Below, one piece after another: positions 4,118 through 32,836 of a stretch of DNA of 64,000 nt; positions within the stretch are counted from its first letter, which is position 1; every line of letters begins with the position of its first letter. The stretch lies in the NCBI GenBank assembly GCA_049591595.1, contig JBAWFE010000027.1, positions 149,812-213,811 on the forward strand, read 5' to 3'. Position numbers and translations under genes: made by a program. The DNA comes from Candidatus Dormiibacterota bacterium. GTDB lineage: Bacteria > Chloroflexota > Dormibacteria > Aeolococcales > Bog-877. A model generated the notes under the pieces. That model was not told the DNA's origin, did no database searches, and saw nothing but the letters and a program-made list of their open reading frames with translations.

Positions 4118-4914
4118 GCGAGCGCGGCGATGCCTTCGCGGAACTCCACCGACGGGGTGGGCCACTCTTCTTGCCCAATGCGTGGGACTTCGCTTCCGCC
4201 TGGATGCTAGCCCAGGCTGGCTATCCAGCGGTCGGCACCACCAGCCTGGGCGTGGCTGGCGCCGTCGGCAAGCCCGATGCCATGGGCTCGGTCCGAGAAG
4301 AGACGCTGGTGCTGACCCATCGGCTTGCCCGACTTCCCGTGTTGCTGACCGTGGACCTCGAGTCGGGCTTCAGTGATGACCCCGAGGAGGTGGCAGATTT
4401 GGCGGCCGAGATCAGCGCCGCCGGAGCGGTTGGCATCAATCTCGAGGACGGCACGCTGGACCAGACCATGGGGCCTAGCGATCTGCATTGCGCCAAGATT
4501 GCGGCCGTCAAGTCGAGGGTCCCAGAGCTGTTCGTCAACGCCCGCACTGATGCCTTCTGGCTCACCCACAAGGCCTCTCAGCCTGCACTCGATGACTCGC
4601 TGCGCCGGGCCCGAGACTATCTTTCAGCGGGCGCCAGCGGCATCTTCATCCCGGGACTCCAGGAGTACCAGTCGATCGAAACGGTGAGTGCCGAGATCGA
4701 CGCTCCTTTGAACATTCTGTACCAGCCGGGACGCCACACCCTGAGCCGACTGGCCCTTGCGGGCGTCGCCCGAGTCAGCACCGGATCGCTGCTCTTCCGA
4801 GCGGCCCTGCAGGCGCTGCTGCAGACCTCCCATGCGGCCCGCGATTACGCGGTACTGGAAGATCCTGAACGGCCGACCTACCGACAGATTCAGACCGCCC
4901 TGATTGGCCCCTGA
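4114..4914 (+). CDS. isocitrate lyase/PEP mutase superfamily enzyme (carboxyvinyl-carboxyphosphonate phosphorylmutase / methylisocitrate lyase-like)
   Basis: AWDFASAWMLAQAGYPAVGTTSLGVA ... LLTVDLESGF ... INLEDG ... NARTDAF. GTG start overlaps the P450 stop (GTGA). Confidence 0.7.
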   Translation: MSERGDAFAELHRRGGPLFLPNAWDFASAWMLAQAGYPAVGTTSLGVAGAVGKPDAMGSVREETLVLTHRLARLPVLLTVDLESGFSDDPEEVADLAAEISAAGAVGINLEDGTLDQTMGPSDLHCAKIAAVKSRVPELFVNARTDAFWLTHKASQPALDDSLRRARDYLSAGASGIFIPGLQEYQSIETVSAEIDAPLNILYQPGRHTLSRLALAGVARVSTGSLLFRAALQALLQTSHAARDYAVLEDPERPTYRQIQTALIGP

Positions 4915-8740: not shown

Positions 8741-9271
8741 TTGCAAACGAGCCGAAAGAAATTCGAAGAAAGCGCGTCGGACCCATATCTGGACGAATCC
8801 GATTCGGCGATCCTGCGATCCCTTCAGGCCGACGCTCGCACCACCCTGGCTCGAGTCGGTCGAGCCGTGGGGCTATCTCCCTCTTCCGTCCATGAGCGCC
8901 TTCGTCGCCTCCAGCGTGATGGCGTGATCCGTGGCTGGACTCTGGAACTGGACCCTCGGGCAGTCGGTCGGCCTGTGACCGCCTTCGTAGGGGTGGAGGC
9001 GGACGTGACCGGGGGAACCCTGGCCGCTCGATTGCGGGCCCGGCCGGAGGTCGACGAATTCCATAGCGTCGCTGGAGATCTTTCCTTCTTCCTGAAGGTC
9101 CGGACCGCCGACACCGAGGCGCTATTGCGGTTGGTCGACTGGATCAAGGAGCTGCCTGGAGTGCAGGCCACCCGAACCACGATCGTTCTCAAGATTGAGT
9201 TCGAACGCCACCTCTGGCTGGGTCCCGCGCCTGTCGTTGAGTCGCCCGGTGAGGATGTTTCGGATCTCTAG
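8741..9271 (+). CDS. Lrp/AsnC-family transcriptional regulator
   Basis: LDESDSAILRSLQADARTTLARVGRAVGLSPSSVHERLRRLQRDGVI (HTH_AsnC) plus a C-terminal RAM domain. TTG start. Divergent from the EamA exporter with only ~30 bp between the starts. Confidence 0.75.
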   Translation: MQTSRKKFEESASDPYLDESDSAILRSLQADARTTLARVGRAVGLSPSSVHERLRRLQRDGVIRGWTLELDPRAVGRPVTAFVGVEADVTGGTLAARLRARPEVDEFHSVAGDLSFFLKVRTADTEALLRLVDWIKELPGVQATRTTIVLKIEFERHLWLGPAPVVESPGEDVSDL

Positions 9272-11210: not shown

Positions 11211-13271
11211 TCAGGGAAGGAGGTGGACCGGACTCCCGAGGTACTGGACTTCGACGCTGATGGTGTCTCCCGCAGTGGTTCCTGCCGCAACGTTGTAGTA
11301 CAGGTCCCAGTATGAGGCGAGAGTGGAGGATGGATCGTAATTGGAGGGCACCTGGATGTCGAACTGAACCCATTGTCCGTTGAACAAGGAACCGCCACCA
11401 ACGCTGGTTTCGACCACCGCGGATGTGGTGCTGAACGTGTAGGTGGCCGGGGACGGACCGTCCGTGGTGATTCGAGTGCTCGCACCTCCAGCTTCATACG
11501 CAGCCAGGCTTACACCAAGATTGTCGACCGCAGGCTCGTTGGTCGTGTCGAGAGCCAGCGTGGCGTAGTCCTCTGGATAAGTCTCCGACAATCCGGTGCT
11601 GGGGTTTATGCCCGTGTAGCTCGGCTGGAGGATCCCCAAGTAGGCCGTACCGCTCACATCACCGGGGTCGAAGACTCTGACGGCGATGGTCTTACCCGCA
11701 TATTCCACCGGCAAGGAGAAGAGGGGGACTTGGAAGGAGCCCCCTCCGGCGCCCGCCTGGATCGGGGTATAGATGCACAGATCGGCCATTGCCGAGACGG
11801 TGCAGGAGGTACTGCTGTCGTTGCAAGAGTTGTTCGTCAGACTACTGCTTCCCGGAGTGACGACCCGCAAGGCGTAGGCGTTGTGTGCGAGCGGATAGCT
11901 GTCGGGCAGGCTGGCGCTGTTAACTGGCGATGGGCTGTAGATGACGGTCTGACTCGAGTTGATCACGGCACCGTTCCACATGAGGGTGTCCACGCGCAGG
12001 CGGTAATAGCTGCCCGTGGTCGCGGCGCCGGTAAGAGCAGTAGATGAGCCGCTGCCACTCTCGTAGCTGGCCAGGCTCGGGCTGGTGAAGGAGGCGTTGA
12101 AGAGCTTGGTGCTGTTGCCTCCGGTGTAGCTCAAGAGAGAAACATAGTTCTGAAACACCGTCGGCGTCGTACCTGAAACGGTAGTCGGAGAACCGGGAAT
12201 CGATGAGTTGGGGTTGTTGCAGTTTGCGTAGTACGTGTAGCTAACCGCTCCGCCGTCCTCGATTCCGTAGGCGTCGAAGGGGCAAAAGATATCCTGCTTC
12301 AGGGGAACGTCATCTCCGCGGTTGTTGATATCAGGCACCGCGAAGAGGGTGAACCCCATCGCGGCATAGTCATATGCCGGAGGTTGGGTACCAGTCGTAG
12401 TGTCCGGGAAGCTACTGTCGTCGTCGTGGTAGCTGTTGACGTCAGCATCGTTGTCAGTCCCGGGATCGAAGCTAGGGTTGTAAATCTGAACGTCGTCGGT
12501 GTCTCCGGGTGGGACGTAGATGAGGTAGTCGTACCCACCAGTGTCATTCACGCACATGTTGCCGGTCGTCCCATTCGCGACCCCGCACTTGGTGTCAGTG
12601 GCACCCGAGCAGAGATCGTCGCCCTCGATGCAGCTGATTTGGTGTACGTCCGGACTTGAGACATCGGAGCAATTTCCGTTGCAGCCGGTCGTATTGTCGT
12701 CGTAGGGGGTGGGTGTGAAGGCATCACCCTCGGAACGAGGGTTGCCGTACCCTTCGGTCCGCAGGAAGTACTCACCGGTTTGATCCGCGATCTCCTGCTC
12801 GGTCGACCCGAGCGAGTTCCCGGGCTGACCGAGTTGTATCGGAGGCAGGTACTCCGCAGTGGCCGAGGACGTTACCTCATGCTGGCCAAACCCGAACAGG
12901 TCCAGGAAATACACCGGCGCGGGAGCCGTGATCGACACCGTCAGCTCGTTGGTGGTGTTCGCAGGTTCGGAGACCGACACGGTGATCGCCGAGGTGGGAG
13001 TGCCCGAGGTGTTGGTGTACCCGTCGCGCTGCGCCGTGAGCAACGCTTCGCGGGTGGCGTCAGTCATGTCGCCCGGAAGATAGGACACGCCCGAGAGGGC
13101 AGCGGCAGAGGCCGCCTTCTCCTGTTGGTCACTGTGGAGATAGGAGATGCCGGCGTCTATGGCCAAACCCATGATCGCAAAGAGCACAATGGCGGTCAGG
13201 GCGAAGATCAGCAGGACCTGCCCCTTTTGGGTATGGTGCCAGGACTTCCTGGGTGACTGGCGGCTGGTCAT
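11211..13271 (-). CDS. TadG-like Flp-pilus assembly protein (large, Cys/Ser/Thr/Asn-rich extracellular)
   Basis: N-terminus QKGQVLLIFALTAIVLFAIMGLAIDAGISY matches the Tad TadE/G-like signature (pfam13400-like). 686 aa, many Cys pairs. Lower GC than the surroundings. Confidence 0.6.
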   Translation of the reverse strand: MTSRQSPRKSWHHTQKGQVLLIFALTAIVLFAIMGLAIDAGISYLHSDQQEKAASAAALSGVSYLPGDMTDATREALLTAQRDGYTNTSGTPTSAITVSVSEPANTTNELTVSITAPAPVYFLDLFGFGQHEVTSSATAEYLPPIQLGQPGNSLGSTEQEIADQTGEYFLRTEGYGNPRSEGDAFTPTPYDDNTTGCNGNCSDVSSPDVHQISCIEGDDLCSGATDTKCGVANGTTGNMCVNDTGGYDYLIYVPPGDTDDVQIYNPSFDPGTDNDADVNSYHDDDSSFPDTTTGTQPPAYDYAAMGFTLFAVPDINNRGDDVPLKQDIFCPFDAYGIEDGGAVSYTYYANCNNPNSSIPGSPTTVSGTTPTVFQNYVSLLSYTGGNSTKLFNASFTSPSLASYESGSGSSTALTGAATTGSYYRLRVDTLMWNGAVINSSQTVIYSPSPVNSASLPDSYPLAHNAYALRVVTPGSSSLTNNSCNDSSTSCTVSAMADLCIYTPIQAGAGGGSFQVPLFSLPVEYAGKTIAVRVFDPGDVSGTAYLGILQPSYTGINPSTGLSETYPEDYATLALDTTNEPAVDNLGVSLAAYEAGGASTRITTDGPSPATYTFSTTSAVVETSVGGGSLFNGQWVQFDIQVPSNYDPSSTLASYWDLYYNVAAGTTAGDTISVEVQYLGSPVHLLP

Positions 13272-13273
13272 GG

Positions 13274-13948
13274 CTATGAGCCCTCCGGCGGAAAAGTGAT
13301 CGCGGTATATGAGCTATCGGTCTGCGAGTAGTAGGCAAGTCCGGGCGACGTGAAATGGAACCAGACGGCGACGCCGATTGCCTCCTCATCGTCCACGGAC
13401 TGGGAGCGCAGGTTGAGTGCGTACTCTCCAGTACCGCCTGTAAAACATCCTGATGCGCCAGACGCGCTGGCTCCATCGGTGGCATCGAGGTTCCAGCTTC
13501 CCGTCGTCGAGCAGAAGGTGTAATCGTCCTGCTCGGTGGCTCCGGCCGGGTTACCTTGCGCCACGGAGCAAGTGGAAAGGGCTGGGAGGACTCCGCCTGA
13601 CGGCATACACGAGGCCGGTTGATAAATCTCGATCAGGGTTGGGGTGGAGTTGGAGAGCTGGTTCAGTGACGGCAGCATCGCCGAGAGGATCTCTTCGTCT
13701 ACGGCACAGGGGTCATCAGCGGTCGTCTGGCACGTGGAGTCCTCCTCACATGTCAGCGAACCACTCTGCTCTCCGCAGGTGCTTCCGATTTCGGCGGCGA
13801 TCCTCGCGCCGTAGCCGGTCGCCTGGGCGACACTGTCGTTGTTGGCGATCAAAGCCGCCCCTGTCCACGCTCCGAGGAACACCAGCAGGATCACCGGAAA
13901 AATGATCACGAGCTCGATCAGGGCTTGGCCGCGTTCGCTTCGGCGCAT
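13274..13948 (-). CDS. TadE-like pseudopilin
   Basis: MRRSERGQALIELVIIFPVILLVFLGAWTGA is a TadE N-terminal motif. Its ATG shares a base with the upstream tadE stop (TGATG on the minus strand). Confidence 0.6.
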   Translation of the reverse strand: MRRSERGQALIELVIIFPVILLVFLGAWTGAALIANNDSVAQATGYGARIAAEIGSTCGEQSGSLTCEEDSTCQTTADDPCAVDEEILSAMLPSLNQLSNSTPTLIEIYQPASCMPSGGVLPALSTCSVAQGNPAGATEQDDYTFCSTTGSWNLDATDGASASGASGCFTGGTGEYALNLRSQSVDDEEAIGVAVWFHFTSPGLAYYSQTDSSYTAITFPPEGS

Positions 13949-14580
13949 CACAGGCTTTGCGGCTCCAAGCGGCAGACCACCGATGCGGTGAGGTGGAATG
14001 TCGCCCAACCTCCGATCGTGCTGAAGGTGTAGTCGACCTTGACTAGCGCGAAGTCAGGCGTGCCCACCAGGCCCGAGCTCTGGCTGGTGATGCGATCCTC
14101 GGCTGGCCAACTGCAAGTGGTGTTGACCGTACCGGTGCAGCTCCAGCCTGTCGGGTCGGTGCCGGTGACCCCAGTATGGGTGTAGATCATTTCACAGGGA
14201 ACGCCGCTACCGCAGCCGTCAGTGTCCAGGACGAGGTTCTCGCCCGAGGAACCACTCACCTGGTCTTCCCGTTGTACGGAGATCGAAGTGACTGTGGAGA
14301 GGACGGTATTGTTCAGGCCGGCTGGCTCCATCAGCTGAATGGCCAGTTGGTCCGCGTCCAAGGTGTTCGTCCCCTGGACCTCGGTGCCGTTGCCCTCAGC
14401 AGCGATCTCGGCTGCGCCGACATCGACGGCGTGTTGGAGGGCGTTCCTGGAGAACAGGAGAAGTCCGCCATTTATGATCGAAAAGAAGATAAAAAAGAAG
14501 ATCGGGGCCGCCAGGGCGAATTCGATCGTCGACTGAGCCCGCTGACCCCGTCCCGGACGGAGCAGCCGGTAGAAGAACAT
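13948..14580 (-). CDS. TadE-like pseudopilin
   Basis: RGQRAQSTIEFALAAPIFFFIFFSIINGGLLLF is a TadE motif. The ORF is open to 14607. Confidence 0.6.
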   Translation of the reverse strand: MFFYRLLRPGRGQRAQSTIEFALAAPIFFFIFFSIINGGLLLFSRNALQHAVDVGAAEIAAEGNGTEVQGTNTLDADQLAIQLMEPAGLNNTVLSTVTSISVQREDQVSGSSGENLVLDTDGCGSGVPCEMIYTHTGVTGTDPTGWSCTGTVNTTCSWPAEDRITSQSSGLVGTPDFALVKVDYTFSTIGGWATFHLTASVVCRLEPQSL

Positions 14581-20105: not shown

Positions 20106-20924
20106 ATGGCATTGCGCCGATTCGGCATCGATCTCTCTCCGGACCAGGTGGCCGTTTGGGCGAGAGGCGATGGACTGGTGATCGAGGAGCCGGCCGCCCT
20201 GGCCCGGCAGCGAGGAAGCGGCCGGGCGCTCGCCTTCGGGACAGCCGCGTTGGAGCTGGCCGCCGACCGTGGCGACGAGGTTGAGCTCAGCTGGCCGCTG
20301 GGGGTGGAACGGCTGGCGGACACCGCTGCCGCCGAGCAGTTTCTCCGCCAGGTGATTTTCCGGGTCGTCGGCCGGCTGCTCTTCTCGCGCCACGAGTTGA
20401 TGCTCGGGGTCTCAGCTGAGCTCTCTACCGGATCGCGCCGGGCCTTGCTTCAGGTCGCCATGGCGTCAGGGGCTCGGATGGCTCACATGATGGATCTGCC
20501 CTTGGCGGCGGCCCTCGGTGCCGGCCTGCCGATTGCCGCCTGGACACCGCTTCCATTGATCTTCCTGCTGCCGCAGTCCGCCCAACTGGCGGTCGTCTGC
20601 CACGAGGGGCTGCTGGGCCACCGGGCTATCGCGCCGATCGGTGGATCCTGGGAGAGTGAGGGCGGGATGCGGGAGCTCGCCGCCGTCGCCACCGGTCTGA
20701 TGGATGAGCTCCCACCTCGGGTGCGGGAGCAGGCAGCAGAATCCGGGATCGCCCTGGCCGGACGGGTTCAGGGTCTCGCGGCGATCGGGAGCGGACTGCA
20801 GGAGGCAACCGGAGTGGCCGTCCGCCTGATCGCCGACCCCAACCACTGCGTTGCCAAGGGCACCGAGGTGGCACTCGCCCGGATCGAGTCACTCGGCAGC
20901 GAGGGTCTCCTCTACCTGCGCTGA
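20106..20924 (+). CDS. MreB/actin-like fold protein with degenerate nucleotide-binding motifs
   Basis: Collinear with MreB: GIDLSPDQVAVWARGDGLVIEEPAALA, MDLPLAAALGAGLPI, IADPNHCVAKGTE. Phosphate-1 (DLGTANT becomes DLSPDQV), phosphate-2 (DIGGGTT) and adenosine (LTGGGA) motifs are lost. 272 aa. Confidence 0.4.
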   Translation: MALRRFGIDLSPDQVAVWARGDGLVIEEPAALARQRGSGRALAFGTAALELAADRGDEVELSWPLGVERLADTAAAEQFLRQVIFRVVGRLLFSRHELMLGVSAELSTGSRRALLQVAMASGARMAHMMDLPLAAALGAGLPIAAWTPLPLIFLLPQSAQLAVVCHEGLLGHRAIAPIGGSWESEGGMRELAAVATGLMDELPPRVREQAAESGIALAGRVQGLAAIGSGLQEATGVAVRLIADPNHCVAKGTEVALARIESLGSEGLLYLR

Positions 20925-20983
20925 GCGCCGCGGCGGTCGCTCCTGGAGGGACTGTTGTCCCGGGCCTCCGAGCCTGTTCCGAA

Positions 20984-21013
20984 TTGACAGCCTCGCCGAG
21001 CCCCGACTAAGCT
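20984..21013 (+). promoter_or_regulatory. candidate promoter (TTGACA-18 nt-TAAGCT) for the iron ABC operon
   Basis: TTGACA at 20984-20989 and TAAGCT at 21008-21013. Confidence 0.35.
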
Positions 21014-21024
21014 CAGTCTAAGAG

Positions 21025-21043
21025 CGAGGTTAGCCGGACCTAA
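21025..21043 (+). promoter_or_regulatory. DtxR/IdeR-like iron box
   Basis: cgAGGTTAGCCGGACCTAA compared with the DtxR consensus TTAGGTTAGCCTAACCTAA gives 15/19 matches, including a perfect left half-site AGGTTAGCC. It sits just downstream of the putative -10 and ~85 nt upstream of the Fe(III)-binding protein start. Confidence 0.45.
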
Positions 21044-21127
21044 CGCGAGAGTCGGCAGACCGCCCATCTGTCACCCCGCGCGCTCTCGGCGGCTTGCTGA
21101 ATGGGGCGCCCGTCCAACGGAGGATTG

Positions 21128-22171
21128 ATGGCAAGACCCACTGGCGCGACCAGCAAGTGGCTAGTGGCGACCGCCCTCGCATCCATCCTGGTGGCCGCCC
21201 TTGCCGGCTGCCAAGCCTCCCCAGGGTCGGCTCGTACAACCCTCATCCTCTACAACGGCCAGCACCCTCAGACGACAGATTCCCTAGTAACCGCCTTCGA
21301 GCATCAAACCGGGATTCAGGTGGAGGTGCGCTCTAATGATGAGGATGTCCTCGCCGACCAGATCGAAGAGGAGGGCTCAGCCTCACCCGCCGACCTGATC
21401 TACACCGAGAACTCTCCGGCGCTGGAATACCTACAGGGGAAGCACCTGCTCGCCCGAGTGCCCCGGTCGACGCTCTCCCACGTTCCGGCCAAGTACAACT
21501 CGCCGGCCTCCGACTGGGTCGGAGTCTCGGCGCGGGTTAGCGTCCTCGTATACAACACGACCCTGCTCAAACCGAGCCAGCTGCCAACGTCGGTGCTGGG
21601 CCTCGCGGACCCAAAGTGGCGGGGACTGTTGGCGATCGCACCCGGAGAGACCGACTTCCAACCGATCATCACCTCGATCGCCAGAACCTACGGTAAGGTC
21701 ACCGCACTGAAGTGGCTCGAAGGCGTCGGGGCCAACGCCGAGCAGCACGTCTACCCGGACAACGAGACCATCACCGATCGGGTTAACTCCGGTCAGGCGG
21801 CGATCGGGATCATCAACCAGTACTACTGGTATCGCCTCCGAGCCGAGACCGGCTCATCCCAAATGCACTCGGCGATCGCCTACTTCGCACCCCGCAACCC
21901 GGGTTACGTGGTGGACGTCTCCGGGGCCGCGGTGCTCAGGTCGTCCCGGTACAAGGCGGCGGCCGACCGGTTCCTGGCGTTCTTGGTTAGCCGCCAGGGC
22001 CAGGAGATCCTGGCGCACAGCGACAGCTTCGAGTACCCGCTTGGGTCGGGGGTGGTCACCGCCCGCGCCTTGCGACCCTTTGCCAGCCTGCAGCCGGCTC
22101 CACTCACCATCGCTGACCTGGGAGATGGAGCTGAGGCAGTCGCGCTACTCCACCAGTCGCAGCTGCTGTGA
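21128..22171 (+). CDS. Fe(III) ABC transporter substrate-binding lipoprotein (FbpA/SfuA/AfuA family)
   Basis: Signal peptide with lipobox LAGC, and a periplasmic-binding fold (YNGQH...YTENSP...). RBS GGAGG before ATG 21128. Confidence 0.8.
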   Translation: MARPTGATSKWLVATALASILVAALAGCQASPGSARTTLILYNGQHPQTTDSLVTAFEHQTGIQVEVRSNDEDVLADQIEEEGSASPADLIYTENSPALEYLQGKHLLARVPRSTLSHVPAKYNSPASDWVGVSARVSVLVYNTTLLKPSQLPTSVLGLADPKWRGLLAIAPGETDFQPIITSIARTYGKVTALKWLEGVGANAEQHVYPDNETITDRVNSGQAAIGIINQYYWYRLRAETGSSQMHSAIAYFAPRNPGYVVDVSGAAVLRSSRYKAAADRFLAFLVSRQGQEILAHSDSFEYPLGSGVVTARALRPFASLQPAPLTIADLGDGAEAVALLHQSQLL

Positions 22172-22186
22172 GCCGCAACTAGCCCG

Positions 22187-23773
22187 ATGGCAACACTTGC
22201 CACGGGGCTGAACCTGCCCGGACTGGTGCGTGCCCGTCGGCGCATCCCCCGGGCGGTGCTGGTCGCCAGCTGTCTGGTGGCTGTGCTGCTCCTGCTACCG
22301 CTGGCGTTTCTCCTGCTCGAGGCTCGCCAGGTCGGATGGGCCGATCTCTCCGGGCTGCTCTTCCGTCGAGTCACCGCCAACTTGCTGTGGAACATGGCGC
22401 AATTGGCGGTGGTGGTCACCGCGCTGGCGGCCGTCATTGGGACCGGAGCCGCCTGGTGTGTTGAGCGCAGCGATCTGCCGGGCCGGCGCCTCTTGGCGAT
22501 GCTTCTGGTGCTGCCGCTGGCGATCCCCGACTTCGTGGTTGCCTTTGGGTGGGTCTCTGTGCTGCCAGCGGTCAGCGGCTACGGCGGCGCCGTGCTGGTG
22601 ATGACCGCTGGGCTCTATCCGCTCGTCTACCTGCCGGTAGCAGCCAGCCTTCGGGGTGCCGATCCTAGTCAGGAGGAGACGGCTCGCACCCTGGGTCTGG
22701 GACCGTGGCGCGCCTTCTGGCACGTCACCCTACGGCAGACGAGGCCTACCATCCTCGCCGGCTGCCTTCTGGTCTCCCTGGCCCTGCTCGCCGAATACGG
22801 CGCCTTCGAGATCCTGGGCTACCAGACCTTCACCACCGAGATCTTCACTGAGTTCCAGGCGGCGATCAACGCCCCAGCCGCCTGCGCTCTCTCGTTGGTG
22901 GTGGTTTTGATCGGACTGATGATCCTGGCGGGGGAGGGGTCGCTGCGGGACCGGGGCCGGGTGGCCAGAGCGGCCCACAACTCGAGACGGGCGGCTCCCC
23001 GCCACCAGTTGGGGCGCTGGCGCTGGCCGGTCGCAGGGGCATTGGGAAGCTTGATCGCGGTGGCGCTGGGCATGCCGATCGGGGTGATCGTCTACTGGAT
23101 TGTGCGGGGGGGTAGCTCGACCCTGCCCCAGTCGGCTTCGGTCGCCAATGCCGCCGGTCATACCGTCCTCTACAGTGCAGCCGCCGCGGCCGTCGCCACC
23201 GCGCTGGCGACGCCAGTCGCGCTGCTGGCAGTTCGCTCGCCGATCCGCTCAGTCCGGCTCTTGGAGCGCAGTACCTACATAGTTCAGGGGCTGCCCGGCC
23301 TGGTCATCGCTCTGGCTTTGGTGTACTTCGCCCTGCACTACCTGCCCTTCGTCTACCAGACCAGTGGTCTCCTGATCGGTGCCTACGCGATCCTCTTCTT
23401 TCCTCTCGCCTACGTGGCCGTTCGCGCGTCCGTGATGCAGGCTCCGATAGCCCTCGAGGAGGTAGCCAGGTCGCTCGGACGCCGCCCCTTGGCGGTGCGA
23501 TTGCGAGTCACCCTGCCCTTGATCGCCCCGGGACTGGCCGCCGCATTCTGTCTGGTCTTCCTCTCGGCGGTCACGGAGCTCACCGCCACGCTGATCCTGG
23601 TCCCGACCGGTGTCCAGACACTGGCCACCCAGTTCTGGGCCTTCACCGGCAACGTCTCCTACGGGGCAGCCGCCCCTTACGCTGCCGCCATGGTCGCCAT
23701 CTCGGTGGTCCCGGGAATCCTGCTTGGTCGCTGGTTCGACCGCCGACCTGCTCGCTCGCTGGACCTCTCTTGA
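22187..23773 (+). CDS. Fe(III) ABC transporter permease (fused double BPD_transp_1, FbpB/SfuB-like)
   Basis: Two tandem permease halves of ~6 TM each (528 aa), with EAA-like loops. Confidence 0.8.
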   Translation: MATLATGLNLPGLVRARRRIPRAVLVASCLVAVLLLLPLAFLLLEARQVGWADLSGLLFRRVTANLLWNMAQLAVVVTALAAVIGTGAAWCVERSDLPGRRLLAMLLVLPLAIPDFVVAFGWVSVLPAVSGYGGAVLVMTAGLYPLVYLPVAASLRGADPSQEETARTLGLGPWRAFWHVTLRQTRPTILAGCLLVSLALLAEYGAFEILGYQTFTTEIFTEFQAAINAPAACALSLVVVLIGLMILAGEGSLRDRGRVARAAHNSRRAAPRHQLGRWRWPVAGALGSLIAVALGMPIGVIVYWIVRGGSSTLPQSASVANAAGHTVLYSAAAAAVATALATPVALLAVRSPIRSVRLLERSTYIVQGLPGLVIALALVYFALHYLPFVYQTSGLLIGAYAILFFPLAYVAVRASVMQAPIALEEVARSLGRRPLAVRLRVTLPLIAPGLAAAFCLVFLSAVTELTATLILVPTGVQTLATQFWAFTGNVSYGAAAPYAAAMVAISVVPGILLGRWFDRRPARSLDLS

Positions 23774-24828
23774 GCGCCATCAGCATCGCTGGACTGTACA
23801 AGGCATTCCGGGATACCGCGGTGCTTCGGGGCCTTGATCTGGAGATCGAGCGAGGCTCGCTGGCGGCGATCCTGGGGCCGTCCGGAAGCGGCAAAACCAC
23901 CCTGCTCCGAGTGATCGCGGGGTTGGATCGGTCAGACCGCGGTCAGCTCAGCCTGGCCGGTGAGGTGGTCGACGACGGCCGCCACTTCGTTCGCCCGGAG
24001 CGCCGCCGGGTGGGATACGTGCCCCAGGAAGCCTCGCTTTTCCCCCACCTCACCGTGGAGCAGAACATCGGATTCGGGATCTCCCGCCAGGCGCGCCGGG
24101 GTGCCCAGGTCCGCGGACTGTTGGAGATGGTGGGTCTGGGGGGGCTGGGGGGCAGGTATCCCCACGAGCTCTCCGGCGGACAGCAGCAGCGGGTGGCGCT
24201 GGCCCGGGCCCTGGCGATCGAACCCCAGCTTCTCTTGCTGGATGAACCCTTCTCTGCGCTTGATCCCAGCCTTCGAGCCAGCGTGCGCGAGGAGGTCCGA
24301 GGAATCCTGGCGACCACAGGCATCACCACCCTGCTGGTGACTCACGACCAGGAGGAGGCGCTCTCCGTGGCTGATCAGGTGGCCGTCCTGCGCGATGGCC
24401 GGGTGGCCCAGTTCGGCACGCCCGAGCAGCTTTATTCGGATCCCGTCGACCTTCAGATGGCCCGTTTCCTTGGGGATGCCAACCTGGTCGATGGCACCGT
24501 GGCCGGTCCCATGATCCAGACCCCGCTCGGGGCGCTGACGGTGCGCCCATCCGAGCGTGCGACCGTGCCGCTGTCGGGGGCCGCAGTGGTGCTGGTGCGT
24601 CCCGAACAGATCGTCATCTCCTCGGCTCTCGGCGAGGGAGCGCCCGGCCGGGTGCTGCACTCCGAGTTCCACGGCCACGACAGCGTCATCGAAGTGGCTA
24701 GTGAGACGCCACTTCTCAGAGGGGTCATCAGGGTCAGGGTTCAAGGCGCCGCGAACCTCAAACCTGAGGCCCGGGTGACTCTCTCTGCGAGCGGCGAGGC
24801 CCAGGCCTGGCCTACGCCGGCTGACTAG
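23770..24828 (+). CDS. Fe(III) ABC transporter ATP-binding protein (FbpC-like, with C-terminal TOBE-like domain)
   Basis: Walker A GPSGSGKTT, signature LSGGQQQRVALARAL, Walker B LLLDEPFSALD and a C-terminal beta-rich extension. Confidence 0.85.
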   Translation: MSAISIAGLYKAFRDTAVLRGLDLEIERGSLAAILGPSGSGKTTLLRVIAGLDRSDRGQLSLAGEVVDDGRHFVRPERRRVGYVPQEASLFPHLTVEQNIGFGISRQARRGAQVRGLLEMVGLGGLGGRYPHELSGGQQQRVALARALAIEPQLLLLDEPFSALDPSLRASVREEVRGILATTGITTLLVTHDQEEALSVADQVAVLRDGRVAQFGTPEQLYSDPVDLQMARFLGDANLVDGTVAGPMIQTPLGALTVRPSERATVPLSGAAVVLVRPEQIVISSALGEGAPGRVLHSEFHGHDSVIEVASETPLLRGVIRVRVQGAANLKPEARVTLSASGEAQAWPTPAD

Positions 24829-26299: not shown

Positions 26300-26665
26300 A
26301 TGATGCTGGAGGCGGACGAACTGGCGGGTGCGGTGCGCTCCGCATGGATTGCCGCCGTTGGCGCCGTGATCGTGGTGGTGGCCGTCGCCTTTCTGATTGC
26401 TGGCATTGAGGGAGCGGGACTCGCCCTTGGGGGAGGCCTGCTGGGCGTTGCCAACCTGCGGTTCGCGGCATTCGCCCTCGGTCGGGCCCCGATCGCTTTC
26501 CTGGGCTCCAGCCTGCCTCGGCTGGCTCTGATCACCGTGGTCTTGGTGGTGTTGGTGATGGCGCTCGGCCCGATCGGGGTCTGGGGGCTGGTAGGGCTTC
26601 TGGCGACCCACCTGGCCCAGGTCGGGGCGATGCTTAGGGTCGGGATCAAGGCGGCCAGCAAGTGA
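26300..26665 (+). CDS. atpI: ATP synthase protein I-like membrane protein
   Basis: ~120 aa, 4 hydrophobic helices, immediately before atpB with a 4-nt overlap. Confidence 0.5.
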   Translation: MMLEADELAGAVRSAWIAAVGAVIVVVAVAFLIAGIEGAGLALGGGLLGVANLRFAAFALGRAPIAFLGSSLPRLALITVVLVVLVMALGPIGVWGLVGLLATHLAQVGAMLRVGIKAASK

Positions 26666-27423
26666 GCCCCATGGTCCTGTCCCAGATCGAGGTGGGAAAC
26701 CACTGGACGGCCCACATTTTCGGCATGTCGCTCTACCTGGACACGTTGGTGAGCAGCCTGGTGGCTTTTGCCATTGTGCTGGGGGCGGGGCTCTATCTAC
26801 GCCACGTGGTGACCGCGGGGGTTCCCGGTCGGTTCCAGGCCCTGATCGAGATGGTCTGGGAAACCGTGGACGACTATGTGACCCGGATGATCGGGCCCTT
26901 CGCTAAGTGGGCGGTACCGCTGTGCACGGTGCTGTTCTTCTACATCCTGGTCAGCAACTGGTTGGAGCTGATCCCGACCGGGGACCGGCTGACCTCGGCC
27001 ACCGCCGACGTCAACGACACCGCCGCCTTGGCAGTAATCGTCATCTTTATGGTGCATTACACCTCGATCCGCCAGCGGGGATTCGGGGGCTACATCAAGA
27101 CCAACTATCTGCATCCGGCCGGGATGCCCAAGGCGTTCTACTTCTTGCTGGCTCCGATCAACGTGATCTCCCAGATCTCCTATCCCATCTCCTTGACGCT
27201 AAGGCTCTTCGGCAACATGTTCGCCGCTGCCTTGATGCTGCAGATCATCGCCCTGCTTCCGATCTACCTGTCCTGGGCCTTCAACGGGGTCTGGAAGCTA
27301 TTTGAGGGCGTCTTCGTCGACGTGATTCAGGCCTTCATCTTCGCCTTGCTGACGGTGATCTACCTCAGCATGGCGACCATGGAGCACCACGATGAGTCGG
27401 CGGCCGAGGCCGCCACAGCCTAG
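26662..27423 (+). CDS. atpB: F-type ATP synthase subunit a
   Basis: Conserved TM4/5 region [23 protein letters not shown] with the essential Arg in LRLFGN. Confidence 0.9.
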
Positions 27424-27460
27424 GGGCCTGGCCCCATACCGAGACCTGGGAGGAATTCAA

Positions 27461-27706
27461 TTGGCGCTCGACACGTCTCACGCAATCGTGTACGCCGGGG
27501 CCATGATCGGCACCGGGGTAGGCGCCGTCGGTGCGGCCATAGGTGATGGTCTAGCCGGGGCGCAGCTGATCGCCGGAATTGCCCGGCAGCCGGAGGCTCA
27601 ATCCCGACTGCTGACCTGGACCTTCCTGACTGTTGGTCTGGCCGAAGCCGTGTACTTCATCAACCTGGCGTTGATGTTCGTCTTCATCAGTCTGGCCGGA
27701 AAGTAG
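27461..27706 (+). CDS. atpE: F-type ATP synthase subunit c
   Basis: [62 protein letters not shown] with the ion-binding Glu in LAEAV. RBS GGGAGG is 7 nt before TTG 27461; the ORF is open from 27392. Confidence 0.85.
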
Positions 27707-27716
27707 GCGATCCCGG

Positions 27717-28226
27717 GTGCCACTAGTCGCCGCCGCCAGCCCGCTATCGCTCAACCTGACCTTTCCCGTCGAGATCGTCGTCTTCCTGGCACTCCTGTAC
27801 CTGTTGGCGCGGTATGTCTTCCCGCCGATCGTCAAGGCTCTCGACGCCCGGAAGCAGCAGATCGCCCTGGCCCTGGCAGAGGCCGAGGCGGCACGCCGCG
27901 AGGTCGAGGAGGCCCGCCGCCAGGAGAAGACCGATCTGGCGGACGCCCGGCGCCAGGCCCAGGAGATCCTCGACAAGGCCCAGAAGCTCGGTGAGGAGCT
28001 CCGCGAAGAGCTGCGCCAGAAGGGCCGGGAGGAGCAGGAGGCGATGCTCACCAGGGCCCGGGCCGAGCTCGCCCAGGAGAGAGAGCAGGCCGTCAGCCAA
28101 CTGCGGCGTCAGGTAGCCGACCTGGTGCTTTCGGCCACCCAGAAGATCCTTGAAGAGGAGCTCGACCCGAAGCGTCAGCGCCGCCTCATCGACGAGGCCC
28201 TGGCGGAGGTCGAGCTGAGTGCCTGA
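27717..28226 (+). CDS. atpF: F-type ATP synthase subunit b
   Basis: Single N-terminal TM followed by a long charged coiled coil (EAEAARREVEEARRQE...). Confidence 0.85.
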   Translation: MPLVAAASPLSLNLTFPVEIVVFLALLYLLARYVFPPIVKALDARKQQIALALAEAEAARREVEEARRQEKTDLADARRQAQEILDKAQKLGEELREELRQKGREEQEAMLTRARAELAQEREQAVSQLRRQVADLVLSATQKILEEELDPKRQRRLIDEALAEVELSA

Positions 28227-28785
28227 CGCCCCCCGGGTCCCCAGTACCGCCCGCCATTACGCGGAGGCGGTCTTCCAGCTAGCCCAGGACGAGGGAGCGT
28301 TCGCGCCATGGCTAGCACGGTTGGGGCGGCTGCGCCAGCTGCTGGAGTCGAGCGACCTGGGCAAGACGCTCGCCGACCCCTCCCTCAGGATCGCCCAGAA
28401 GCTGGAGCTCTGCCGAGCGATCCTGACCGAGGACCGGGAGATCGACAAGCTGGCTGGCAACCTGCTCTTGGTGCTGGTGAGTAGCCAGCGCCAGCGACTA
28501 CTACCGGCGATCGAAGCCGGCTACCAGCAGCTGGTGGACAAGCGCGAGGGCCGGGTCCTGGCCCAGCTGACGACCGCAGTCCCGGTGAGTCCCGCCGAGC
28601 AGACGGAGCTGGCGCAGAAGCTCTCGGAGCGGCTCCGACTCGATGTCAGATTCGAGGCCAAGGTTGACCCCGCCCTCTTGGGCGGGGCAGTGGTGCGGGT
28701 GGGAGATCGGGTTTTCGACGCGAGCCTGACCACCCGGCTCCAGCAGTTACGCCAGGACCTGCTTTCTCAAGTGCCAAATAGATGA
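28219..28785 (+). CDS. atpH: F-type ATP synthase subunit delta (OSCP)
   Basis: OSCP-like 188 aa protein between atpF and atpA. Confidence 0.85.
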
Positions 28786-28792
28786 GGAAAAC

Positions 28793-30328
<1,536 letters not shown>

Positions 30329-30336
30329 ACAGCCAC

Positions 30337-32836
<2,500 letters not shown>

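Follow-up and report, generated by a model that had tools for sequence, protein, structure and literature searches.

A predicted DtxR-family operator ahead of an FbpABC-type ferric-iron importer operon in Dormibacterota

IdeR and DtxR recognize a 19-bp iron box, TTAGGTTAGSCTAACCTAA, which is built from four CCTAA repeats and accommodates two repressor dimers on opposite faces of the DNA (PMC8464063). In Saccharopolyspora erythraea, each IdeR subunit contacts one CCTAA repeat, and the two dimers take repeats 1+3 and 2+4 (PMC8464063). A single IdeR dimer also binds to half sites, one designed (KD 78 nM) and one occurring naturally in this species (C23S1; KD 102 nM) (PMC8464063). The manganese (Mn) sensor DR2539 of Deinococcus radiodurans binds the dr1709 operator, ATTTTAGTCGCGCCTAAAAT, which contains the palindrome TTAG-N6-CTAA. 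Streptococcal ScaR, SloR, and MtsR control Mn importers and bind AT-rich operators unlike CCTAA repeats. In proteobacteria, the ferric-iron importer operons FbpABC, HitABC, and SfuABC are under Fur control.

Here, we examine an importer operon of the latter type in a 64-kb window (the whole stretch of DNA analyzed) from an uncultured soil bacterium of the Dormibacterota, together with a palindromic site that precedes it. A literature search for DtxR or IdeR in Dormibacterota or Chloroflexi found nothing relevant, and no regulatory site of Dormibacterota was found among the papers searched either. The comparative evidence makes it quite likely that a metal-dependent repressor of the DtxR family uses the site as its operator and thereby controls the three-gene fbpABC-type ferric-iron importer.

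The importer operon and its neighborhood

The operon comprises three genes on the forward strand. The first (21128–22171) encodes an FbpA-like Fe(III)-binding lipoprotein of 347 aa, with a Pfam SBP_bac_6 domain and the lipobox LAGC (Cys28); gene callers agree on its start at 21128. After a spacing of 15 nt follows the gene for an FbpB-like permease of 528 aa (22187–23773), in which two transmembrane domains are fused, each visible as a BPD_transp_1 stretch. This gene overlaps by 4 nt with that of an FbpC-like ATPase of 352 aa (23770–24828), which carries ABC_tran and TOBE_2 domains. The ATPase matched the ferric ABC ATPase model NF008513 with an E value of 1e-70, below the model cut-off, and no NCBIfam equivalog was found at cut-off for the binding protein or for the Dormibacterota regulator described below.

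Among solved structures, the binding protein matched HitA (6iwf; E 1.5e-69), and SfuA, FbpA, and YfuA were matched too. Residues His46, Glu94, and Tyr232-Tyr233 align with identical residues of HitA (6iwf), and we take these to be the positions of the Fe(III) ligands in FbpA. An identical binding protein occurs in the metagenome-assembled genomes (MAGs) GCA_049578365.1 and GCA_049578905.1. A homolog of FbpA, HitA, and SfuA with aligned ligands, encoded in one operon with a double-domain permease and a TOBE ATPase, places the system among FbpABC-type importers and supports the iron-importer label for the ABC system of the window. The operon therefore shares with FbpABC, HitABC, and SfuABC the binding protein with its His/Glu/Tyr-Tyr set, the fused double permease, and the TOBE ATPase. 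It differs from them in its lipoprotein-anchored binding protein, its occurrence in an uncultured phylum, and its predicted DtxR-type operator.

Upstream of the operon lie an EPSP synthase gene and an MreB-like gene (20106–20924) that ends at 20924. The MreB-like protein (272 aa) aligns with the MreB profile over the N-terminal half alone (residues 5–176), and its C-terminus reads ...LLYLR; its gene is the conserved upstream neighbor of the operon in Dormibacterota relatives. The gene after the ATPase is on the opposite strand. Elsewhere in the window, an F-type ATP synthase operon (a, alpha, gamma, beta; 26662–32836, forward strand) lies downstream of the importer locus. A 686-aa open reading frame without a Pfam match (11211–13271, reverse strand) adjoins a TadE-like gene (13274–14008, reverse strand).

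The palindromic site, its promoter, and their conservation

A sequence-only reading of this DNA had placed a TTGACA-18-TAAGCT promoter at 20984–21013 and a DtxR/IdeR-type box 12 nt beyond it. Direct reading agrees on both counts. The −35 hexamer TTGACA occupies 20984–20989 and the −10 hexamer TAAGCT 21008–21013, both on the forward strand, and the 19-mer CGAGGTTAGCCGGACCTAA (21025–21043, no strand assigned) begins 12 nt past the last base of TAAGCT. A scan for consensus sigma-70 promoters and terminators returned no call, including none for TTGACA-18-TAAGCT, because TAAGCT matches TATAAT at only 3/6 positions. It is conservation that points to this candidate promoter, the −10 hexamer being weak, and transcription would start near 21020.

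The conservation was assessed in 24 syntenic loci of Dormibacterota, drawn from both genomes and metagenomes, of which the 22 that bear the box represent 16 distinct sequences. The closest genomic relatives of the window are Candidatus Dormibacterota MAGs, namely L001 (92% identity) and L002–L009; more distant relatives belong to Acidimicrobiales, Solirubrobacterales, and Streptosporangiaceae. The arrangement TTGACA-18-TAAGCT-16-TTAG-N6-CTAA recurs without any change in length in 22/24 syntenic loci. The −35 hexamer reads TTCACA in one sequence and TTGACG in another, otherwise TTGACA, and always stands 18 nt from the −10 hexamer, which is itself conserved in 14 of the 16 distinct sequences. 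Across these 16, TTAG and CTAA are invariant, whereas identity amounts to 53% at the six central box bases and to 47% in the 18-nt promoter spacer. The syntenic lineage L008/L104 has kept the MreB-like neighbor and lacks both the TTGACA-18-TAAGCT pattern and the box, which suggests regulatory turnover.

As the sequence-only reading had claimed, CGAGGTTAGCCGGACCTAA matches the DtxR consensus TTAGGTTAGCCTAACCTAA at 15/19 positions. Its reverse strand likewise scores 15/19 against the IdeR form, which has G at the center. In a scan of the 64 kb, this was the top-scoring 19-mer, with the runner-up at 12/19. At the base composition of the window (65% G+C), the number of matches of at least 15/19 expected by chance is 0.029 for the two strands of the 64 kb and 9e-5 for a 200-bp upstream region. 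The perfect left half-site that had also been claimed does not stand. Mismatches fall at positions 1, 2, 12, and 13, and each half of the 19-mer therefore matches at 7/9 positions (cgAGGTTAG on the left).

What is intact in the 19-mer is TTAG-N6-CTAA (21030–21043); of the four CCTAA repeats, it comprises the second and the fourth (GCTAA and CCTAA). Repeats 1 and 3 read CCTCG and CCGGA, with 3/5 matches each, and the positions they occupy (1–5 and 10–14) are unconserved among syntenic relatives. Hence, the selected unit would be one dimer site, and occupancy of the full 19-mer by two dimers is rejected. The stretch 21030–21043 fits the published definition of a "half binding site" and not that of a full two-dimer box. 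As judged from its bases, then, the site is a single-dimer half site. The actinobacterial IdeR/DtxR box shares with it the repeat unit, the spacing, and the setting in an iron-uptake promoter, and orthologous actinobacterial operons carry the full box; the window site, in contrast, has room for one dimer on repeats 2 and 4 only. The CIRCE element of HrcA has the form TTAGCACTC-N9-GAGTGCTAA. It was considered as an identity for the palindrome and rejected on the basis of its different spacing.

This conserved core, hereafter box 2, is a perfect 14-bp palindrome frame, TTAGCCGGACCTAA (21030–21043, no strand assigned). It begins 16 nt after the −10 hexamer and lies 85 nt before the start codon of the FbpA-type gene. 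Exact TTAG-N6-CTAA occurs once in the 64-kb window, with 0.04 occurrences expected. When one mismatch is allowed, the window contains just two such sites, 22 bp apart, with 2.55 expected over its whole length. The second of them, box 1, is the imperfect palindrome TAAGCTCAGTCTAA (21008–21021, no strand assigned), which contains the −10 hexamer TAAGCT. Its single mismatch falls on repeat position 4 and preserves the A at position 2 of that hexamer. Box 1 is kept as TAAG-N6-CTAA in 12/16 distinct syntenic sequences and degraded in the other four, and four bases between its halves are variable. The S. erythraea site C10S1 has the same T-for-A change at repeat position 4 and is nevertheless bound by IdeR (PMC8464063). 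Box 1 is probably a second dimer site overlapping the −10 hexamer. Compared with the IdeR half sites, box 2 likewise offers one CCTAA pair with repeats 10 bp apart. Those half sites come from an actinobacterium with a canonical IdeR, whereas the box 2 frame is the conserved form across a clade of another phylum, and the window adds an imperfect unit 22 bp upstream, over the −10 hexamer.

The position of box 2 also raises the question of a function in RNA. The repeat is downstream of the predicted transcription start, and GUUAG/CUAAC pairing would be possible, as expected if the 5′ untranslated region contained a hairpin or a leader element. Against this, the consensus fold of nine syntenic leaders reached −3.3 kcal/mol with a positive covariation term (RNAalifold), and the leader folds no better than its shuffles (z = 0.68). 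A search of 20500–21600 against Rfam at E values up to 10 gave no match, with sub-threshold snoRNA-like noise only. The rest of the 108-nt leader is poorly conserved and holds no other conserved element in the syntenic alignment besides the Shine-Dalgarno sequence GGAGGA (21119–21124, forward strand), in which GGAG is invariant among nine aligned loci. The four core pairs never vary, and the palindrome therefore shows no covariation. Invariant half-sites around a variable center, in combination with this lack of covariation, point to DNA bound by a protein and not to a stem in the RNA, and an RNA element appears extremely improbable.

The operator reading gains further weight from operons beyond the clade. 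The ortholog set comprised 78 loci and 1.5 Mb, with the upstream region defined as the 300 bp before the binding-protein gene. TTAG-N6-CTAA occurs within this region in 63/78 loci. In total, 84 of the 92 sites in these loci fall within it, and the other eight lie 440–892 bp upstream. This corresponds to a density of 3.6 per kb in the upstream regions versus 0.0055 per kb elsewhere, i.e., an enrichment of approximately 650-fold. Actinobacterial orthologs carry canonical IdeR boxes, with 19/19 matches in L038, L039, and L070 and 18/19 in many others.

The arrangement of the units varies in these promoters. Many Solirubrobacterales loci have a single TTAG-N6-CTAA unit only, for example, TTAGGGCACCCTAA. 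In promoters of Acidimicrobiaceae and Solirubrobacterales (L019, L025, L035, L041, L043, L045, L050, L051, L058, L060, and L069), two tandem 14-bp TTAG-N6-CTAA palindromes with an offset of 14–16 bp precede the binding-protein gene; in the canonical 19-mer, two such units overlap by 5 bp instead.

A four-mismatch site in one sequence is weak when taken alone, and 15/19 is attained in 5 of 100 Markov-simulated windows once the consensus is relaxed to a W/S-degenerate form. A chance resemblance without function is nonetheless refuted by the fixed-position conservation in divergent relatives and by the ~650-fold enrichment upstream of orthologs, which leave it with a probability close to nil. Chance as the origin of the 15/19 match is excluded. 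The window site thus combines a CCTAA palindrome, a location in the promoter and leader of a metal gene, and conservation and enrichment at metal genes, all features of DtxR/IdeR operators. The core of the sequence-only reading, a DtxR-type operator after the promoter of an fbpABC-like operon, draws support from the fixed-position conservation, the enrichment, and the IdeR boxes of the orthologs.

DtxR-family regulators and the metal signal

The sequence-only reading had stated that the regulator is not encoded in the window. Indeed, a tblastn search of the 64 kb with a Mycobacterium tuberculosis IdeR sequence and four Dormibacterota regulators gave no match to a DtxR-family gene. Seven NCBI-sourced homologs examined as possible regulators of the MAG to which the window belongs were all from other assemblies. 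In other Dormibacterota (L042 and L049) and in the metagenome loci L117 and L142, a 227-aa DtxR-family gene stands directly upstream of the orthologous operon. These regulator genes lie at 9108–9791 in L049 and 6802–7485 in L042, and further regulator genes of this clade lie in L081–L089 and L174–L177. The protein has the three-domain IdeR/DtxR architecture, with Fe_dep_repress (PF01325), Fe_dep_repr_C (PF02742), and FeoA (PF04023) domains, and its nearest solved structure is IdeR (E 2e-30). A 19-bp palindrome, TTAGCTTAGACTAAGCTAA, overlaps the stop codon of its gene.

Homologs that NCBI assigns to Dormibacteria share the neighborhood thiL-tsaE-tsaB-rimI-tsaD-dtxR-X-groES-groEL, and every examined Dormibacterota tsaD-groES region contains the DtxR-family gene. 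X is an FTR1 permease in L081 and L088 and a ZIP transporter in L082–L085, with exactly one box of 17–18/19 between the regulator and the transporter gene in all six. More generally, wherever a transporter (FTR1, ZIP, or fbpABC) follows the regulator, a box of 16–18/19 lies between the genes; in L086, where groES is the next gene, no metal box is present. Across 383 kb of Dormibacterota DNA, 26 sites were found versus 0.7 expected, all of them upstream of fbpA, FTR1, or ZIP genes. The enrichment of the motif at iron genes, which had been proposed as a check, is thus seen both among the 78 orthologous loci and at the metal transporters of Dormibacterota (26/26 sites).

In L086, the regulator gene is directly followed, at approximately 4715–4745 and ahead of groES, by the CIRCE-like inverted repeat gTTAGCAGTC-N9-GAGTGCTAA. 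Its TTAG and CTAA ends are those of the metal box, and its spacing is different. A further type of DtxR-family regulator adjoins the orthologous operon in L112, L114, L139, L161, and L169, divergently in 3/5. This type has Glu at the Gln43 and Met10 positions of IdeR and Gly at Cys102, and it retains His98, Glu105, and His106; four of the five proteins contain CPHGN, and the L114 protein ends before that part. TTAG-N6-CTAA is missing from the vicinity in most of the five loci, and their operator may therefore be of another type.

That an unrelated transcription factor recognizes TTAG-N6-CTAA would be conceivable insofar as no regulator gene adjoins the operon in the window and the link to the DtxR family is a prediction. 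Three observations oppose such a factor, and we rate it as very unlikely. Orthologous promoters show a continuous gradation from the motif to complete 19-bp IdeR boxes. Within the 383 kb of Dormibacterota DNA, the motif is confined to the intervals that separate DtxR-family genes from metal transporters. In addition, the Dormibacterota regulators keep Ser37, Pro39, and Thr40, which make base contacts in IdeR.

In IdeR, direct hydrogen bonding is limited to Gln43, which contacts the first C of the repeat (PMC8464063). For the Dormibacterota regulators, this residue is Val in 116/120 relatives. Repeat position 1 is G in 21, C in 15, A in three, and T in three cases in Dormibacterota sites and C in 124/158 actinobacterial cases, with related sequences included in these counts. 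The loss of the C bias would fit the Gln43-to-Val replacement, a correspondence that is suggestive only.

The metal-binding residues also depart from those of canonical IdeR. Met10 and Cys102 raise selectivity for Fe2+, and MntR proteins have Asp/Asn and Glu at these positions (PMC10317159). At the IdeR positions, the Dormibacterota regulators have Arg or His for Met10, Asp for His98, Ser or Ala for Cys102, and Val, Ser, or Ala for Glu105; His106 is retained. They lack both the complete set of primary-site ligands of canonical IdeR/DtxR (Met10, Cys102, Glu105, and His106) and the MntR signature (Asp/Asn at 10, Glu at 102). Their best-preserved metal site consists of His79, Glu83, and a Cys-Pro-His motif, the last present in 115/120 relatives. 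It resembles site 1 of ScaR, SloR, and MtsR, which in the MtsR/SloR type is formed by His76, Glu80, Cys123, and His125 (PMC9253540). With these streptococcal regulators, the Dormibacterota proteins further share three domains and a FeoA-like C-terminus. The same Cys-containing site is found in the archaeal Thermoplasma IdeR. The original IdeR/DtxR reading is supported with one correction: DtxR-family regulators do occur in the phylum beside the same motif, but they are not canonical IdeR proteins, with Met10, Cys102, Glu105, and Gln43 replaced.

These replacements raise the possibility that the operator and the regulator family are as proposed and that the signal is manganese or another divalent metal, detected by a sensor akin to MntR, TroR, or ScaR. 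The substitutions at Met10, Cys102, and Glu105 and the match of the Cys-Pro-His site to site 1 of streptococcal Mn sensors (PMC9253540) are in line with such a signal. So are the JGI label "Mn-dependent" for the Dormibacterota regulators and the presence, among the adjacent targets, of ZIP transporters, for which several metals are possible. DR2539, itself an Mn sensor, binds an operator with TTAG-N6-CTAA inside, and the motif alone therefore cannot name the metal. DR2539 and the Dormibacterota regulators are alike in their single pseudo-palindrome and in the absence of Gln43 (Gly in DR2539, Val in Dormibacterota). They differ in that the primary site of DR2539 is of the acidic Mn type (Asp11, Glu102, Glu105, and His106), whereas Dormibacterota have Arg/His, Ser/Ala, Val/Ser, and His, and in that the Dormibacterota targets are Fe-type transporters.

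Several lines of evidence argue against manganese. The MntR signature is absent from the clade (rule from PMC10317159), and the Cys-containing site is shared with Thermoplasma IdeR, taken to be iron-dependent because of its name. Rather than Mn importers of the MntH or TroA type, the targets comprise FTR1 iron permeases and an FbpA-type protein whose Fe(III) ligands are intact. Moreover, the actinobacterial orthologs of the operon carry canonical IdeR boxes. A signal other than iron thus appears unlikely. As read here, neither the motif nor the sensor sequence identifies the metal. We infer iron as the signal from the target genes and not from the sensor sequence: the binding protein is of the Fe(III) type, FTR1 permeases are among the targets, and orthologs in actinobacteria carry IdeR boxes.

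Predicted mechanism and biological meaning

When metal is plentiful, most likely Fe2+, a metal-loaded repressor dimer would sit on box 2 at about +11 to +24. A second dimer would probably sit on box 1 at about −12 to +2, over the −10 hexamer. The box centers are 22 bp apart, or two helical turns, so that both dimers would lie on the same face of the DNA. Repressor on the two boxes together would block either binding or escape of RNA polymerase. When iron is scarce, the apo-repressor would be released and the importer transcribed. The repressor itself would be encoded outside the window, as illustrated by the tsaD-dtxR-(metal transporter)-groES slot in other Dormibacterota. The transcription start, the sensing of iron, repressor binding, including that at box 1, and the resulting repression are all predictions of this model.

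On a broader and more tentative level, Dormibacterota and some neighboring lineages may possess a distinct DtxR-family clade dedicated to iron uptake, an idea that we hold to be possible rather than probable. Its members would have lost the classical primary site (Arg/His10, Ser/Ala102, and Val/Ser105) and would sense metal through the His-Glu-Cys-Pro-His set, in the manner of ScaR and the Thermoplasma IdeR. Val in place of Gln43 would mean that (N)CTAA is read rather than CCTAA. The operators of such a clade would be modular, with 14-bp TTAG-N6-CTAA units occurring singly, overlapping by 5 bp, or, in the form present in the window, set as a pair at a distance of two helical turns, one of them merged with the −10 hexamer.

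The predicted switch is of an ordinary kind and introduces no new regulatory principle; it is proposed for a phylum in which such regulation is unstudied. For Dormibacterota, the analysis proposes a concrete cis-element and models the promoter as TTGACA-18-TAAGCT; the predicted metal regulon is small and comprises fbpABC, FTR1, and ZIP genes. Three features are of modest interest: the single dimer site as the conserved architecture, the likely second unit embedded in the −10 hexamer, and a regulator clade of an uncultured phylum that departs from the canonical type. Half sites occupied by one dimer, which in vitro work recently established for IdeR, would here represent an evolutionarily conserved form of operator in nature.
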